Part shown: piece after piece, positions 2,579-9,071 of the stretch
Numbering within the stretch: position 1 is the first letter of the stretch
Layout of the letters: every line of letters begins with the position of its first letter
Source: a bacterium
GTDB taxonomy: Bacteria > Sysuimicrobiota > Sysuimicrobiia > Sysuimicrobiales > Kaftiobacteriaceae
DNA: 10,311 nucleotides
Reading direction: 5' to 3'
NCBI GenBank assembly: GCA_044868695.1
Contig: JBIOWP010000097.1
Span: forward strand, 1 to 10,311
Position numbers and translations under genes: made by a program
Notes under the pieces: model-generated
The model's database searches: none
Seen by the model: the letters and a program-made list of their open reading frames with translations, nothing else
Told to the model about the DNA's origin: nothing

Positions 2579-2860
2579 CTAGCGCGGAGTTTCGCGCTCC
2601 CAGGCCATCGCCGGCGCCCCCACACCGGCCATCCGCCGGGCCAGGGTCGCGGGCGAAATTCCCGACGCGATCACGGCGATCGCGGTGACGACCAGGGCCT
2701 TACGGTCCTCACCCGGCCCGCCGCCCCGCAGCCGGCGGGAGTGCCTGGACTTGTCGACAAACTCCCGATTGATCTCCGACGAGGCCAGCAGGCGGGCGTC
2801 TAGAACAGCCACCACGTCCGTGACTCGAATGACGACGTCACCCCCGAGGTGGACGTACAT
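2579..2860 (-). CDS. remB: RemB/YaaB-like protein (DUF370 family)
   Basis: N-terminal MYVHLGGDVVIRVTDVVAVLD and C-terminal KALVVT...SGISPATLARR fit the YaaB/RemB pattern. It sits in the Firmicute-type position between recF and gyrB. Confidence 0.8.
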   Translation of the reverse strand: MYVHLGGDVVIRVTDVVAVLDARLLASSEINREFVDKSRHSRRLRGGGPGEDRKALVVTAIAVIASGISPATLARRMAGVGAPAMAWERETPR

Positions 2861-3347
2861 CCGCGGACCCGGGCTGGCGCTTCTTCCACAGCAGTTGACT
2901 CTCCATTACCTTCCTGGCCGTCGCGCGCAATTCCGGATCCGCGATCTCCGCGACGGTGCGCTCAATCGCCGCCGTCTCCTCGCCGGAGAGCGCGGGCTCC
3001 TGGGCCTGTGGCACGGCGGGGGCTCCCAGCGTAGCCGGGGCCGCCGGCGGACCGGTCCGCGGGCGCAGCCGCATCTCTGCCACCGCGCGAACGCCCAGCC
3101 GCCGATTGATCTCCTCAGCAATTCCGCCGCGCCGGGCCGACAGTTCCTGCACCCACAGCCCGGGCTCCACTTCCACCACGAGCGTCGTGCCGCGCAGTCC
3201 CGCCGGCCGGGAATACGCGGCTCCCTCACCGACGATCTCCGCCCACATCTCCTGGATCATGGCTTCATACGCGGCGCGCTCTACGCCCAGCGCCGCCGCC
3301 GCCGAACGCAGAATCGTCCTAAGGGAGGTGAGCGCGCTGCGCTTCAA
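2838..3347 (-). CDS. dciA: DUF721 / DciA-like protein (putative helicase loader)
   Basis: Core WAEIVGEGAAYSRPAGLRGTTLVVEVEPGLWVQELSARRGGIAEEINRRLG fits the DUF721 pattern, followed by a Pro/Ala-rich linker and a helical tail. Start moved from 3362 to TTG at 3347, which has SD GGGAGGA at 3358-3352. Lies between recF and gyrB. Confidence 0.75.
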   Translation of the reverse strand: MKRSALTSLRTILRSAAAALGVERAAYEAMIQEMWAEIVGEGAAYSRPAGLRGTTLVVEVEPGLWVQELSARRGGIAEEINRRLGVRAVAEMRLRPRTGPPAAPATLGAPAVPQAQEPALSGEETAAIERTVAEIADPELRATARKVMESQLLWKKRQPGSADVRPPRG

Positions 3348-4446
3348 CCGTTCCTCCCGCAACGCGGTAGACCGCGGCGTCCGCGGGCAGCTCCGGCAGC
3401 GTCGCGAGTGTGGTCACGGTTACCAGCGTCTGCGCGCCGCGTGCGAACGTCAGTAGCTGCGCCTGCCTGGGCTCGTCCATTGCCATCACCACGTCATCCA
3501 GGAGCAGGGTCGGCTCTTCGCCGGTGTCCTCGCGCAGCAGCCGGCGCTCCGCGAGCCGCAGCGCGAGCACGGCCGCGAGTTGCTGGCCCCGTGATCCGTA
3601 TAGCCGCAGGGAGCGGCCGTCCACGGCCAGGTGGACGTCATCGCGGTGCGGCCCGGCCAGTGTCACGCCGCGGGCCAGCTCTGCCGGGCGCCGCTGCGCC
3701 AGGGCGCGGCGCGCGTCCTGCGCGAGCTCCTCTTCATCCGCGCCGGCCAGGTTCGGCGCGTAGGTTACCGTCAGCGCTTCGCGCCCCGCCGTCACCTCGC
3801 CGTAGATCTCTCGCGCGGCCGCGGCCATGCGGTCCACCAGCGCGCGGCGCCGTACGGTGATGGCCGCGCCCAGCACGGCCACTTGCTCGTCCCATGGCTC
3901 CAGGACACCCGGTGCGGCGCGCCCCGCCCGCAGGAGCTGGTTGCGCTGCAGCACTGCCCGGGCATAGCGCTGCGCGGCGTAGAAATACGACGGGCTCATC
4001 TGCGCCAGCAGCAGGTCCACCAGCCGGCGCCTCGGCGCGGGCCCGCCGGCGGCGATGTCGGCGTCGTGCGGAGTGGCTACGACGCACAAGAGGTGTCCAA
4101 AGATCTCTCCACGGCGCACCGGGACGCCGTTAAGCCGCACCTCCCGCCACAGGCGGCCGGGCTGCGGCGCCGATGCATCCGCGCGGAGCGCGACGTCTAT
4201 CTCCACATCACGATCCGCCCGCGCTGCCGCCGCGTGCACCCGGGCCCAGCTCTCTCCCAGGGTGATGAGGTCGCCGTCGCGCTGCGCGCGGTGCGAGCGG
4301 CCGGTGGCGGCCACCTCTACGGCCTCCAGCAGCGAGGACTTCCCCTGAGCGTTGGCTCCGACCAGAACCGTCAGCCCCTGGCCGGGCTCGATCTCGGTGC
4401 GGCGGTGGTTGCGGAAGTTGATGACGCGCAGGCGTGTGATGTGCAT
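3319..4446 (-). CDS. recF: DNA replication/repair protein RecF
   Basis: Start taken as ATG at 4446 (MHITRLRVINFRNH), 1 nt after the yaaA stop. Walker A GANAQGKSS, GPHRDD, signature SRGQQ, Walker B LLLDD. Confidence 0.95.
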   Translation of the reverse strand: MHITRLRVINFRNHRRTEIEPGQGLTVLVGANAQGKSSLLEAVEVAATGRSHRAQRDGDLITLGESWARVHAAAARADRDVEIDVALRADASAPQPGRLWREVRLNGVPVRRGEIFGHLLCVVATPHDADIAAGGPAPRRRLVDLLLAQMSPSYFYAAQRYARAVLQRNQLLRAGRAAPGVLEPWDEQVAVLGAAITVRRRALVDRMAAAAREIYGEVTAGREALTVTYAPNLAGADEEELAQDARRALAQRRPAELARGVTLAGPHRDDVHLAVDGRSLRLYGSRGQQLAAVLALRLAERRLLREDTGEEPTLLLDDVVMAMDEPRQAQLLTFARGAQTLVTVTTLATLPELPADAAVYRVAGGTVEAQRAHLP

Positions 4447-4677: not shown

Positions 4678-5787
4678 TCAGGCGTACACCCTCACGGGGG
4701 CGAGAACGTACACGTAGTCGGTGTGGTGCGCGGGGCGGAGCGCGCCGGGACTGAGCGGGCCGGTCAGTTCGAAAAAGAGCTCGTCGGACGCGATGTTGTT
4801 CAGGCAGTCGATCAGGTACCGGGCATTGAACGCCGCCTCGACGCTCTCGCCCTCGGCCGTCACGTCGACCTCCTCGCGCGCCTTCCCGACCTCCGGCGTG
4901 TTGGAGGTGATCGTGAGGACCTTGCCCTTCGCGGCCAGCCGGACGACGTTCGCTGAGTCCCGCGCGGTGATCGACGCGCGGCGTACGGCGCGCAGGAGGC
5001 GGTCGGTCTGCACCCGGATGCGCTGCTTGAACTCCTGCGGGATCACCTGCTGGTAGTTCGGAAACTGCCCGCTGATGAGCCGCGAGAACACGCGCAACCC
5101 CGGGACCGCGAACACCAACTGGTTGTCGGCCATCGCCAGCTGTACGGCTCCTTCGGCGCCGGCCAGGGCCCGCCCGAGTTCCTGGAGCGCTTTCGCGGGC
5201 ACGATGACACCCAGCTTCTGCCGCGCCGGCTCCGCCAGCGTCACCTTGCGCAGCGCCAGCCTGCCGCCGTCCGTCGCCACGAACCGGGCCTCGGCGCCAT
5301 CCAGCACCACGTACACGCCCGTCAAGAACGGCCGGGTCTCGTCGGCGGACACGGCAAAGATCGTCTGGTTGATCATCATCCGCACAATGTCGGCTTCAAT
5401 GGTGCCTACAGCCTCGCCGTCGGCCCGCGGGAGCGTGGGGAAGTCCCCTGCCGGTAGCCCCAGGATCTCGAACTGGCTCGCTTCGCAACTGATTTGTGCC
5501 TGCGGCCCGCCCTCCGCAGCTTTGATCTCAACCGTCGCCGCCGGCAGATTGCCAACAATCTCGGTCAGAATGCGCGCAGGCAACGTCATCTGTCCGCCTT
5601 GTTTGACCTCAGCATCCACTTCCACCTGTACCGCCAGTTCCAAGTCCGTCGCGGTAAGCTTGATGCCGTCCTTTTGGGTTTCCATCAACACGTACCCAAG
5701 AATTGGCATCGTTGTCCGGGTCGAGATCGCCCGGCCGACCAATTGGACGGCTTTAAGAAGAGCTGGCTGTGGACAGGTTACCCACAT
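4678..5787 (-). CDS. dnaN: DNA polymerase III beta sliding clamp
   Basis: 369 aa with MPILG, ATDLE, ADETRPFLTGV, VATDGGRLA, SRLISGQFPNYQQVIP, FNARYLID and C-terminal VLAPVR. SD GGAGG upstream; directly downstream of dnaA. Confidence 0.97.
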   Translation of the reverse strand: MWVTCPQPALLKAVQLVGRAISTRTTMPILGYVLMETQKDGIKLTATDLELAVQVEVDAEVKQGGQMTLPARILTEIVGNLPAATVEIKAAEGGPQAQISCEASQFEILGLPAGDFPTLPRADGEAVGTIEADIVRMMINQTIFAVSADETRPFLTGVYVVLDGAEARFVATDGGRLALRKVTLAEPARQKLGVIVPAKALQELGRALAGAEGAVQLAMADNQLVFAVPGLRVFSRLISGQFPNYQQVIPQEFKQRIRVQTDRLLRAVRRASITARDSANVVRLAAKGKVLTITSNTPEVGKAREEVDVTAEGESVEAAFNARYLIDCLNNIASDELFFELTGPLSPGALRPAHHTDYVYVLAPVRVYA

Positions 5788-5901
5788 GGAGTCCTCCGGA
5801 ATTAATAATTATAAAACTTCGTAGTAGTACTAATAGTGCTGTGGATACTGTGGATAAGCAAATGCAGGCTAACAATAGCAAGCGAATGAGGGTGTGTATA
5901 G
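5768..5901. other. oriC, DNA-unwinding half: DnaA boxes, DnaA-trios and A/T-rich tract
   Basis: Minus strand TTATCCACA (5857-5849, perfect) abuts GTATCCACA (5848-5840). Trios TAG-TAG-TAC-TAA-TAG lie on the + strand at 5822-5836, and a 17-nt A/T-only tract at 5800-5816. Further near-consensus boxes at 5893-5901, 5778-5786 and 5768-5776. Confidence 0.9.
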
Positions 5902-5953
5902 CCCTGGGATAACGGGCGGGCACAATCCCCATCATGTGGAGTCTGCAGAAACA

Positions 5954-7285
5954 TCACTCGGCGCTGCGCAGACTGTCCACAAGCCTCTTCAGATTGGCTG
6001 CGAAGTAGGCGTCCTTACCCAGCACATCCTTCACTCGCTCGCAGGCGTGCATGACGGTGGTGTGATCACGGCCACCGAACTCTTCACCGATCCGCGGCAG
6101 GGAGGCGTCGGTGAGTTCGCGGGCGAGGTACATCGCTACCTGGCGGGGGAAGGCGATGCCTTTCGTCCGTCGCTTCGCGCGCATCTCTTCGACGCGCAGG
6201 TCGAAGTGTTCGGCCACCGTCCGCTGGATCATCTGGATCGTGACCGGTCGGCTCGGGGAGGCCGGGAGCAGTTCCTTGAGAATTTCGGCGGCAAGGTCCA
6301 CGGTCATGGGTGCGCGGGTGAGGCCGGCGTAGGCGACGACGCGCACGAGGGCGCCTTCCAGCTCGCGGATGTTGGACTGGATGCGCTGCGCGATGAACTC
6401 CGCCACTTCGTCGGGCACGCTGAGGCCATCCAGCTCGGCCTTCTTCCGGAGAATCGCGATGCGGGTCTCCAGGTCGGGGGGCTGGATGTCGGCGATCAGC
6501 CCCCACTCGAAGCGTGATCGCAGGCGGTCTTCCAGCGTCGGGATCTCCTTGGGCGGCCGGTCGCTGGTGATGATGATTTGCCGGCTCGCCTCGTGCAGGG
6601 TGTTGAAGGTGTGGAAGAACTCCTCCTGCGTGCGCTCCTTGCCGGCGAGGAACTGGATGTCGTCGATGAGCAGTACATCGACGTTGCGATATTTCGTGCG
6701 AAACTCCAGCGTCCGGTCGTCGCGAATCGCGTTGATCAGTTCGTTGGTGAACTTTTCGCTGCTGATGTATGCGACGCGGGTGAGCTGCTTCTTGTGGATG
6801 ACGTGATGCCCGATGGCCTGCAGCAGATGGGTTTTGCCCAGGCCCACGCCGCCGTAGATGAACAAAGGATTGTACGCACGGGCGGGGGCCTCGGCCACCG
6901 CCATGGCCGCGGCGTGTGCGAACCGGTTTCCCGAGCCGATCACGAACGTATCAAACGTGTATTTCGGCGCCAGGGGCAGGCCGTCTGGTGCCCGCGTCGC
7001 TGCCGTCTGGGCGGGCGCAGCAGATTCCTCGACGACCGTCAACTGGATGCTGACCGCGCGCGAGAGCACTTCCTGCAGGGCGCTGTGGATGAGTCCGGCA
7101 TGGCGGGATTCAATCCACTCCTTCGCATGGCGGCTGGGCACGGCGAAGACCAGCGTGTCGCCGTGGACGGCCACCGGGAGCATGTTCTTTAGGTAGAGTT
7201 CGTAGGTGGGCTTGCTCAGGCGGCTTTCAATACGGCGCAGCGCTTCCTGCCAGATGCCTGCCGCGGACGACGTGTCGACTGCCAT
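5954..7285 (-). CDS. dnaA: Chromosomal replication initiator DnaA
   Basis: [29 protein letters not shown] (Walker A), LLIDDIQF (Walker B), [27 protein letters not shown], domain IV RQVAMYL...[17 protein letters not shown] at 7301-7296. Confidence 0.99.
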
Positions 7286-7325
7286 GTGCGTGCTGCCTCC
7301 TGGAGCGGGAGATAAAGTCCCGGGC

Positions 7326-8114
7326 CTACGGCTTGAACACGTCGCCCAGGGCGGCGATGCCTTCTTCCGTCAGTGTGCGCTTGCCGGCGTCCTTGCCGTC
7401 TACCAGCCGGCGCTGCTCTAGCAGCTGCAGCTCGCGGTAGGCCGTGCTCTGACTCACGCCGAGTTCCTTCGCGATGGCCGAGGGACCGGCCGACCCCAAC
7501 TCGGCGATCAGCAGCAGCACCTTCTTCTGCCGGGGCGTCAGATCGGGCCGCTCGAGGGGGTCCGGTGCCGGGCCCGGGGTGGGCGCAGCGGGCGGCCGCA
7601 CGGGCTCGCCACCGACGGTCAGTGTGACGACCGCGCCGCGGCCGAGGTTGTCCTCGATCCGCACGGCGCCCCCCAGGAATGCCAACTGCTCCCGGGCGAC
7701 GGGCAGCCCTGAGCCGACCCCCTTGATGAGGCGGCGCATCTGCGGAGTGGCGGTGGTGAAGCCCGGCTGCAGCGCCTTTTCCTTGTCGGGAATGCCGGGC
7801 CCCTGATCGGAGATCCGGATCGTGTTGCCGTCGTCGAGGATACTGATCACGGCGCCTCTGAAAAACGCGTGGATCAGATTTTCAATAATCTCGCGGATCA
7901 CCACATACGGGATGCGCCCGCCGCGGTCGCGGGCGAAATCGTACGTGCGCGCGGCGAGGTCGCCGACAAACTCGTGGAACTCCGAGCCCCGCAGGGAGAC
8001 CACCCGGGGAGCAGCCAGGGGCGAGTCATATACGGCCACCCTGACCTCGGGCTCCTCCGGCGCCGCCGACTCCTCGTGCTCCTGAAGCTGGCGCAGGAAC
8101 TCCGTCATCGCCAT
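7326..8114 (-). CDS. Uncharacterised GHKL (HATPase_c) ATP-binding domain fused to a C-terminal winged HTH
   Basis: N-box [10 protein letters not shown]1 DQGPGI, F-box PGFTT, G2 GVGSGLP, Pro-rich linker, then [16 protein letters not shown]...[28 protein letters not shown]...GKRTLTEEG (wHTH). The true start may be the second ATG at 8108, which has GAGG 6 nt upstream. Confidence 0.85.
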
Positions 8115-8181
8115 CCTCGCCGGCCGGGGATCCGCGCATATGCAGTTTGTAATCGGGTGAGACGGTCACGAAGGTTTGCCG

Positions 8182-8208
8182 CCGTCCGGGAAAGTCCTAC
8201 CCGGACGG
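8182..8208. promoter_or_regulatory. Perfect 9-bp inverted repeat upstream of the GHKL-wHTH gene
   Basis: CCGTCCGGG (8182-8190), spacer AAAGTCCTA, CCCGGACGG (8200-8208). Extendable by GCCG/CGGC (8178-8181/8213-8216) across a 4-nt bulge. Confidence 0.5.
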
Positions 8209-8263
8209 ATACCGGCGGGCACATTTCACGACAGTCCGTGAGCAAGCGAGCGGTGACCACGAT

Positions 8264-8546
8264 TGTGGATAGCCCCCGGGGGAGTGAACCCGAGTTCGTG
8301 CACTCCACCAGCCGTTCCTGCCGAACAGAGGTGCGCGGCCGGTGGAGTGGTTGCCGCCGCTGGAGCGGGGATCGAGAGGATATCCACAGCTGTGAAAAAC
8401 CCTGTGGACAATCCAAAAGAAGTCCTGAGGGAGACGGGAGGAGTCCGCCCGCGGCGGAGCCGTCATGGCATGGGCTCTAGAGACGGCCGGACCGGCCTCC
8501 GGAAAATCTGTGGATGGGAGATGGCGTTGCTCCCAAGTTACCCACA
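8264..8546. promoter_or_regulatory. DnaA-box cluster in the divergent promoter region (autoregulatory and/or second half of oriC)
   Basis: TGTGGATAG 8264-8272, ATATCCACA 8380-8388, TGTGAAAAA 8391-8399 (= TTTTTCACA, fits TTWTNCACA), TGTGGACAA 8403-8411, TGTGGATGG 8509-8517, TTACCCACA 8538-8546. Confidence 0.85.
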
Positions 8547-8564
8547 GCCCCTGGAGCAGGCGTG

Positions 8565-8573
8565 TGCTATAGT
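8565..8573 (+). promoter_or_regulatory. Putative extended -10 promoter of the rpmH operon
   Basis: TGcTATAGT ends 10 nt before the rpmH GTG; no clear -35. Confidence 0.55.
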
Positions 8574-8583
8574 GGGTGGTGCC

Positions 8584-8721
8584 GTGGCGAAACGAACCTT
8601 TCAGCCGAAAGCCCATAGACGCAAGAAGACGCACGGATTCCTGCGCCGCATGCGGACACCGGGCGGGCGGACGGTCCTCCGCCGCCGCCGGAGCAAGGGC
8701 CGGTGGCGCGTGACGGTGTAA
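8584..8721 (+). CDS. rpmH: 50S ribosomal protein L34 (45 aa)
   Basis: GTG at 8584: [45 protein letters not shown]. This is the C-terminal end of track ORF 8263..8721. Confidence 0.97.
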
Positions 8722-9071
8722 GGCCGATCCATCGACTCGTCTCCCCCGAAGAGTTCCGACTGGTCTATCGCGAGGGACGCCGCGTAGTCCGGGATTCCGT
8801 GGCTGTGTACGTGCGGCGGAACAGGTTGCCGGTTTCCCGGGTGGGTTTTTCCGTCGCACGCGGCATCGGCACGGCAGTGGCGAGAAACCGGCTGCGCCGG
8901 CGGATTCGCGAGGCGTTCCGGCACGAGCAGGTGCGCCTGGCGGATGGGTTCGACGTGGTGCTGGTGCCGCGCGCCCCGGCAGCCGCGACGCCGTTTACTG
9001 AATTGCGGGCCGTCCTGCGGGAAGCCCTGATTCAGGCGGGGGTCACCGGCGGGCCCGGAGAACATTCCTGA
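8703..9071 (+). CDS. rnpA: Ribonuclease P protein component
   Basis: [23 protein letters not shown] motif [21 protein letters not shown]. Overlaps rpmH by 19 nt; GGAG lies 9 nt upstream of the GTG. Confidence 0.93.

Follow-up and report, generated by a model that had tools for sequence, protein, structure and literature searches.

The window analysed here, a stretch of 10,311 nucleotides that forms one whole 10.3-kb contig (JBIOWP010000097.1), carries a gene directly ahead of dnaA that encodes a GHKL ATP-binding domain, a proline-rich linker and a winged helix, termed gene X in the following. In relatives from three phyla dnaA directly follows gene X in 225 of 230 distinct loci, and no counter-example was found. 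We tentatively read the product as an oligomeric DNA binder that is gated by ATP and targets the dnaA promoter or the upstream half of the replication origin, a reading to which we give slightly less than an even chance.

The survey comprised 251 X loci, 230 of them distinct, namely the best matches per search together with 36 loci picked for divergence or contig-end position, rather than all matches; 34 loci with matches to the kinase core only (L023-L056) were excluded from all adjacency counts. In 223 of the 230 distinct loci dnaA was the next gene on the same strand, with an estimated gap of at most 150 bp in 221 of them. Two of the remaining loci wrapped around to dnaA at contig position 1, five were cut by contig ends and none lay elsewhere. 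The preliminary description of this DNA had called for such a neighbourhood survey, and no homologue in another context came to light. The stop codon of X lay at most 100 nt from the codon of a conserved DnaA tryptophan in 130 of 141 pairs, and at most 45 nt from it in 59. The X-dnaA pair was kept through inversion against dnaN and rpmH (L015, L018 and L020), and X was retained while the neighbours yaaA, remB, dciA and rpmH dropped out or moved. In one carrier lineage, genes for a thiamine transporter (Thia_YuaJ) and a thiamine pyrophosphokinase as well as moeA were found upstream of X, replacing rpmH-rnpA (L111:20-3282 and L133:18-3228). At least four further X loci were without the rpmH block within 4 kb, and about 2 kb between rpmH and X offered space for further genes at L226:4036-6094 and L153:1779-4001. 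No X-like open reading frame was present at 67 control dnaA loci of non-carriers; of these, 49 had rpmH no more than 1.1 kb away, seven lacked it and 11 were too short for a decision. Given that origin synteny is strong by itself, adjacency alone is no proof of function.

The features of the locus, in coordinates of the window, are the following.

7326 to 8114, minus strand: gene X, with GHKL ATP-binding, Pro-rich linker and winged-helix parts; open reading frame of 262 amino acids, likely start at 8108
7611 to 8051, minus strand: predicted N-terminal domain (residues about 22-168) with beta-hairpin, long helix and Bergerat fold; closest fold 3LMM residues 234-408
7341 to 7544, minus strand: predicted winged helix-turn-helix (wHTH; residues about 191-258) of MarR-like fold; recognition helix S-x-S-T-A-Y-R-(D/E)-L, wing G-K-R-x-L-T
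7286 to 7325, minus strand: X-dnaA gap of 40 bp with the dnaA Shine-Dalgarno sequence GGAGG; no DnaA box, promoter or terminator found
5954 to 7285, minus strand: dnaA, 443 amino acids, TIGR00362 above cut-off
5768 to 5985, no strand: downstream origin half, six DnaA boxes in the box scan
8115 to 8583, no strand: upstream half of the origin together with the region of divergent promoters, DnaA boxes at 8264, 8380, 8391, 8403, 8509 and 8538
8294 to 8319, minus strand: predicted sigmaH-like promoter P1, AGGA-N18-GAAC, with the DnaA box 8264-8272 just downstream
8174 to 8228, minus strand: composite element TGAAA(8228-8224)-N25-AGGA(8198-8195)-N17-AAAC(8177-8174), comprising the predicted sigmaH-like promoter P2 and a candidate X site
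4678 to 5787, minus strand: dnaN, then S4-domain yaaA, recF, dciA, remB, gyrB and gyrA (family matches S4_2, DciA and RemB)
8584 to 8721, plus strand: rpmH, divergent from X, then rnpA, yidD, yidC and jag (rnpA, yidD and yidC by family match)

The names dnaN, recF, gyrB, gyrA, rpmH and jag are our assumption from the translations. As the preliminary description had stated, X has the same orientation as dnaA and ends 40 bp ahead of it. Its true start is likely M3, giving 260 residues, because a GAGG lies 6 nt ahead of M3 but abuts M1 and the database protein has 260 amino acids; residue numbers follow the 262-residue count (M1 = 1). X is present in a single copy in the 2.6-Mb, 95%-complete assembly. 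At 2429-2464 of the window, an 18-bp unit spanning the ribosome-binding site and start codon of gyrB is exactly duplicated in tandem; the repeat could be genuine or could stem from the assembly.

A scan for DnaA boxes with at most two mismatches detected six in each of the two origin halves, where about 0.6 were expected and 500 shuffles gave a maximum of four; one box was located within the X reading frame and none in the X-dnaA gap. Across the whole assembly, at least three boxes per 500 bp were found only in these two segments, in line with the earlier placement of X between two box clusters, and the cumulative GC skew reaches its minimum at approximately 5.5-6 kb of the window. Ahead of dnaN, the tandem boxes at 5840-5857 have repeats resembling DnaA-trios beside them (5821-5837), as well as an AT-rich stretch at about 5800-5817. 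Tandem boxes, DnaA-trios and an AT-rich run make up the layout of a basal unwinding system (PMC6669920). Judged by these sequence features, the locus is a bipartite oriC with this layout, and X therefore lies within the origin, with the upstream boxes on one side and dnaA on the other. In the bipartite oriC of the B. subtilis type, dnaA is likewise flanked by boxes on both sides and dnaN is preceded by tandem boxes, trios and an AT-rich run (PMC6669920), whereas at the X locus an extra 0.8-kb gene separates dnaA from the upstream boxes. A consensus scan of 5700-8800 found neither a sigma70 promoter nor a terminator, as the preliminary description had noted for the X-dnaA gap, but this is a weak negative, because the rpmH -10 and sigmaH-type sites escape the scan, too.

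By its ExxxN, DxGxG and GxG motifs and its predicted fold, X is a member of the GHKL (Bergerat-fold) superfamily. Pfam assigned HATPase_c to residues 71-167 (E 5e-12, above cut-off), and E75, N79, H82, D103, G105, G107, F119, G132, G134, G136 and L137 are all present, which confirms every residue of the Bergerat motifs named earlier (E75xxxN79, D103xGxG, F119 and G132xGxGL). Among 147 aligned members N79, H82, D103, G105, G107, G132 and G136 are invariant and E75 is found in 142, and PF02518 was matched in all 147. Three Eggerthellaceae records (L015, L018 and L020), in which the X-dnaA block is inverted between two flanking intergenic regions, carry Gln at the E75 position. AlphaFold2 returned a confident two-domain model of full-length X (pLDDT 89.7, pTM 0.64) and, for the N-terminal domain alone, a model with pLDDT 90.5 and pTM 0.86, and both Foldseek and VIA matched the model of X to GHKL domains.

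The top Foldseek match for full-length X was 3LMM (DIP2311), which in VIA covers residues 18-168 of X with a Z of 12.3 and an rmsd of 2.9 over 149 residues; the two proteins have just 14-17% identity. With the N-terminal domain alone, histidine kinases lead by E-value in Foldseek, and 3LMM has by far the best TM-score among the matches listed (0.75 versus 0.45-0.57 for the kinases). DIP2311 of Corynebacterium diphtheriae, which we take to be an AlbA_2, HATPase_c_4 and wHTH protein of the 'Schlatpase-HTH' type, shares with X the topology of this domain including the N-terminal beta-hairpin. It differs in about 230 N-terminal residues that have no counterpart in X; moreover, the DxGxG lid of X is of the kinase type, and the gene has its set position next to dnaA, not in defence islands. 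AlbA_2 was not matched in X, among the matches listed for the 147 members or in eight long representatives, and the GHKL domain starts at residue 22. PF13749 had no match in the genome of the window at E 0.1 and was not among the matches listed for the 147 members, so that the suspected likeness to HATPase_c_4-HTH proteins holds by fold and fails by sequence. An NCBIfam scan of X yielded no model above cut-off among the matches listed. On sequence and model, X is of 3LMM-like topology with a kinase-like lid and stands outside all named subfamilies.

An alternative that we consider unlikely is that X acts as a DNA-tethered Ser/Thr (or His) kinase or as a partner-switch protein of the SpoIIAB, RsbT or CapK type, phosphorylating or sequestering DnaA, DnaN or DciA at the origin. 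It draws on the ExxxN motif and the DxGxG-F-GxG lid, which are as in anti-sigma kinases, and on SpoIIAB being the best match of X in a single-sequence search of the PDB (E 6.5e-4) and tying with 3LMM by fold on Z in VIA (11.7 over 124 residues of X). In a sequence-profile search of solved structures KinB was best, followed by BCK/PDK and other kinase cores, and the tight X-dnaA spacing would suit a stoichiometric partner. A precedent is the GHKL kinase CapK, whose target is CapS, a wHTH repressor bound to DNA; these modules control an adjacent operon, but they are two proteins with STAS beside immune operons, whereas X is one protein without STAS beside dnaA (PMC13373217). The available text of that paper does not mention dnaA (PMC13373217). 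PADLOC matches to X were weak and confined to the wHTH. Like SpoIIAB, RsbW and RsbT, X has an ExxxN N-box and a G1-F-G2 lid in a small stand-alone GHKL protein, but it has in addition the N-terminal hairpin and the C-terminal wHTH. No STAS or sigma factor adjoins X in the window or in relatives, no STAS was found in X or the window, and STAS was not matched in two of four small carrier genomes, which are drafts. Arguing further against the kinase or partner role, no DnaA column tells the sequences of 147 carriers apart from those of 67 non-carriers (contrast at most 0.30), HATPase_c_2 (PF13581) was not among the matches listed for X or the 147 members, and the genome has a separate RsbT-like gene beside STAS genes, which scored 24.6 bits, below several histidine kinases. 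Membership of X in the RsbT/SpoIIAB family was rejected on this ground, on the score of TIGR01925 against X (21 bits, cut-off 135) and on the missing linkage to STAS or sigma genes; of the RsbT-type resemblance suggested initially, the shared motifs stand and orthology does not. The RsbT-like kinase gene follows two STAS genes in an rsbRST-like cluster unrelated to X (G000:C53:17331-18597).

Sensor histidine kinases and BCK/PDK have CA domains that share the PF02518 core with X, with KinB and BCK as the best profile matches, but X has Glu at position 75 and lacks a DHp/H-box, a sensor, a transmembrane segment and a response regulator. A two-component histidine kinase was rejected, as HisKA was found neither in X nor among the matches listed for the 147 members and the model contains no DHp hairpin. 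The only His residues of X are at 13 (in the variable N-terminus), 47 (unconserved) and 82 (in the N-box helix). The window holds no response regulator, and the neighbours of relatives are origin genes. Consistent with the preliminary description, which had seen no transmembrane segment, HisKA domain or response regulator, the maximum 19-residue hydropathy of X was 1.27 and no HisKA or receiver family was matched in Pfam.

The C-terminal part of X, by predicted fold and by its conserved recognition helix and wing, is a winged helix of the MarR/IclR/TrmB-like kind. Pfam wHTH families match residues 191-255, and VIA aligned this part to MarR-type domains with a Z of up to 12.8 and an rmsd of 1-2.5. 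Among the 147 members R195 is conserved in 140, G210 in 144, R227 in 141, K245 in 136 and R246 in 140. The linker (residues 168-191) contains nine Pro in 24 residues, so that the Pro-rich linker and terminal wHTH described at first sight were both recovered, and it ranges from 10 to 194 residues across members. Because of this variation and the lower pTM of the whole protein (0.64) compared with the N-terminal domain (0.86), the two domains are, by the model, moving independently. In the Coriobacteriia loci L242, L243, L244, L278 and L279 the domains are joined by linkers of about 180-270 residues rich in Gln, Pro, Gly and Tyr.

Upstream of X, with DnaA boxes masked, the pattern GAA(A/C/G)-N24-28-AGG(A/G)-N17-NAA was found in 44 of 49 distinct segments from the window's own phylum compared with 0.14 in shuffles, although the motif was derived from the very carriers in which it was counted, and related genomes are no independent samples. 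The spacing from GAAA to AGGA is 24-28 nt and exactly 25 nt in 29 loci; in its strict form the composite element has a single copy in the genome, at 8228-8174. The consensus of sigmaH is AGGA...GAAT. The genome encodes SigH above the spore_sigH cut-off, and an AGGA-N17/18-(G/A)AAT site is located upstream of spoVS and ftsA, presumably sigmaH targets, while the sigH gene itself has no such site; this suggests a Bacillus-like sigmaH regulon in the window's phylum. The coordinates of SigH, spoVS and ftsA are G000:C105:39524-40117, C127:13653-13898 and C87:28661-29776, and SigH-like genes are present in three of five other carrier genomes. The sigmaH-like pattern is specific to the phylum (20/24 compared with 4/37, 0/20 and 2/33 in other carrier groups), and Coriobacteriia have an extended sigmaA-type -10 instead (25/37).

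Of all 5-mers, GAAAA and TGAAA show the strongest enrichment in carriers, across all four groups (0.28 and 0.18 versus a null of up to 0.09), and 10 of 12 carriers have an at least 2-fold GAAA excess. We consider the GAAA site upstream of X a lead rather than an operator. Scans for palindromes and direct repeats gave only signals limited to single lineages, e.g. TTTC-N1-GAAA in 8 of 20 Bacillota and 0 of 24 in the own phylum. An apparent palindrome, TGA-N10-TCA, was rejected as an X site since most of it is simply the start of rpmH read on the other strand.

That X is instead an ATP-sensing transcription or nucleoid factor with distant targets, whose place ahead of dnaA merely provides DnaA feedback, growth-phase control and origin-dosage expression, appears rather unlikely to us. 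The MarR-like wHTH with its conserved recognition helix, yet no shared operator at the origin, would fit such a factor, as would the sigmaH-like promoters, which would give growth-phase control in the window's phylum. However, it could be co-regulated from elsewhere, yet none of the 230 loci was relocated, and the strict composite element occurs in the genome only at the X locus.

In the window's phylum, profile A1 had matches in 82 of 94 genomes, including all 54 of high quality; two of the 82 are weak kinase-core matches in genomes 59-69% complete. X was detected in 190 of 201 genomes of the class Coriobacteriia (record L008), including 1.4-Mb genomes, in agreement with the preliminary description, which had placed similar proteins there. 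The tally is 92 of 251 for the phylum of L008, Actinomycetota, which takes in three unpublished genomes without a match (G299, G343 and G380), and 27 of 251 for Bacillota (record L009), with X not found in 159 and 224 genomes, respectively. Profile A2 had no match in 81 genomes each of the phyla of L031 (a Prochlorococcus record) and L046 (a Deltaproteobacteria record), both samples being without a positive control; Armatimonadota proper, Chloroflexota, Deinococcota and Thermotogota were outside the sampling. The family comprises 395 clusters (50% identity) at E 1e-30 or better, with one copy in nearly every carrier genome, and no relative was found in viral contig, phage or plasmid collections. 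A fusion search at 747-2130 amino acids yielded nothing, as did one at 460-2000 amino acids, which is weak since known members of 470-490 amino acids were also missed. Among records with a name, 'Bacillati bacterium ANGP1' and 'Armatimonadota bacterium' come closest, a group known as Sysuimicrobiota (CSP1-3), and database names of relatives are generic, e.g. 'ATP-binding protein'. A literature search over main texts, mostly of papers outside subscription, found no description of gene X. One TAG was flagged inside the X match of G187, G197, G275, G237, G177, G181, G203, G253 and G163; recoding was rejected, since the fetched frames of L284 and L285 cover the whole wHTH and the profile merely overruns the natural stop. 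Frame breaks were noted in X (L283, L287 and L289) and in dnaA (L001, L002 and L283), those in L283 being likely sequencing or assembly errors because dnaA and dnaN are broken there, too.

In trees built with FastTree (midpoint-rooted, without clade tests) the window's phylum and most Coriobacteriia group together for both X and DnaA, with weakly supported deep branches; ten DnaA sequences from Coriobacteriia stand apart on a long branch. The trees fit an old vertical descent with losses, sister lineages having lost X, with cross-phylum transfer possible. Together with GC contents at third codon positions of 0.87 for X and, similarly, 0.84 each for dnaA and dnaN, this gives no support to the earlier view of X as inserted into the dnaA operon. 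An apparent exclusion of YabA (0/15 carriers versus 53/96 non-carriers, nominal p 3e-5) was rejected as lineage-confounded, given 0/10 versus 2/19 (p 0.53) among DciA-positive genomes only. In the Bacillota sample, where kin are not independent, DciA was present in 10 of 15 carriers and 19 of 96 non-carriers; the window has dciA at 2838-3362, and its own genome has no yabA match.

It is likewise unlikely, in our estimation, that X is a passenger, i.e. a domesticated remnant of a DIP2311- or Schlafen-ATPase-type ATPase-HTH protein that became lodged between the promoter and dnaA in an ancestor, with an unrelated housekeeping role and held in place by synteny. Such an origin would fit the closest fold, 3LMM, and the fact that Schlafen-GHKL-HTH (Schlatpase) proteins are widespread, often with a short C-terminal HTH (bioRxiv 10.64898/2026.05.29.728809); the conserved gene order of origins without X and the repeated losses that leave no signature in DnaA point the same way. 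On the other hand, X is as conserved as DnaA (mean pairwise identity 0.49 versus 0.50; pairwise r 0.68, kin not being independent), and it is kept in the 1.4-Mb genomes and while its neighbours drop out or move.

For the ATP-gated DNA binder that we favour, the following course of events can be proposed. X and dnaA, to judge from their spacing, would be on one transcript whose promoters are interleaved with DnaA boxes, which would place both under DnaA feedback. ATP binding would close the lid and drive the formation of dimers or tetramers, and hydrolysis at E75 would reset them. This step is borrowed from the PF13749-type GHKL domain of SLFN-pAgo, which oligomerizes in an ATP-driven manner with E314/N318, matching E75/N79 of X in pattern (bioRxiv 10.64898/2026.05.29.728809). 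The freely tethered winged helices might then bind to their presumed target, short and variably spaced sites among the DnaA boxes. X could thereby tune dnaA output, the availability of the upstream boxes or both, coupling initiation to the nucleotide state.

Several observations weigh against this reading. E75 is replaced in 5 of the 147 members, and the lid is histidine-kinase/SpoIIAB-like by sequence; this lid and the near-equal Z values of SpoIIAB and 3LMM (11.7 and 12.3) leave some probability to a kinase role. Palindrome, direct-repeat and k-mer scans detected no operator common to all carriers, which, together with the lack of a DnaA residue separating carriers from non-carriers, does not bear out the proposed action of X on oriC, the dnaA promoter or DnaA. 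The GAAA excess may be a general feature of origins or promoters because it is also seen, 2.4- to 4-fold, in five of nine close non-carriers, and the composite motif carries the circularity stated above. The rpmH-dnaA-dnaN block is conserved without X as well, so that a passenger would also stay, and any inversion that retains the promoter of dnaA must carry X along. In addition, non-carriers nest among carriers in the trees, indicating repeated loss, and X was not found in most of the sampled Actinomycetota and Bacillota.

CtrA, MtrA and CcrZ are among the known regulators of initiation. We know of no such regulator that has a GHKL-wHTH architecture or is located between the upstream boxes and dnaA, nor of a GHKL ATPase acting as an origin regulator. 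YabA, SirA, Soj, Spo0A, DiaA/HobA, SeqA and Hda are further initiation regulators, the first four of which are without the architecture of X; the role proposed for X, to tune DnaA or origin activity, is like theirs, and Spo0A and SeqA bind origin DNA (PMC5295017). No known initiation regulator was matched by X in the Pfam scan or among the matches listed in the NCBIfam scan, which upholds the impression that X is unlike any of them. It is possible, though we hold it with more doubt than confidence, that X represents an ancient, undescribed class of initiation controllers, in which a GHKL domain serves as an ATP clamp and carries winged helices on a tether. Expressed together with DnaA from inside the origin, such a protein would bridge or occlude the upstream boxes or act on DnaA according to ATP state. 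The class would be older than the divergence of Actinomycetota from Bacillota and, if real, would have been overlooked because it was lost in the lineages of model organisms.

Little is settled about the timing of initiation in bacteria other than E. coli, B. subtilis and Caulobacter. SigmaH is best known from the transition phase of B. subtilis, and the predicted promoters suggest that it drives the X-dnaA unit in the window's phylum. X is near-universal in this phylum and in Coriobacteriia, which are common gut bacteria, and is also present in other lineages of Actinomycetota and Bacillota. As a small and predictably soluble protein with candidate null mutants (E75A, N79A, D103A and R227A) and an obvious test DNA, it poses a directly testable question. 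It is likely that X helps to set the timing of the start of chromosome replication in the bacteria that carry it.

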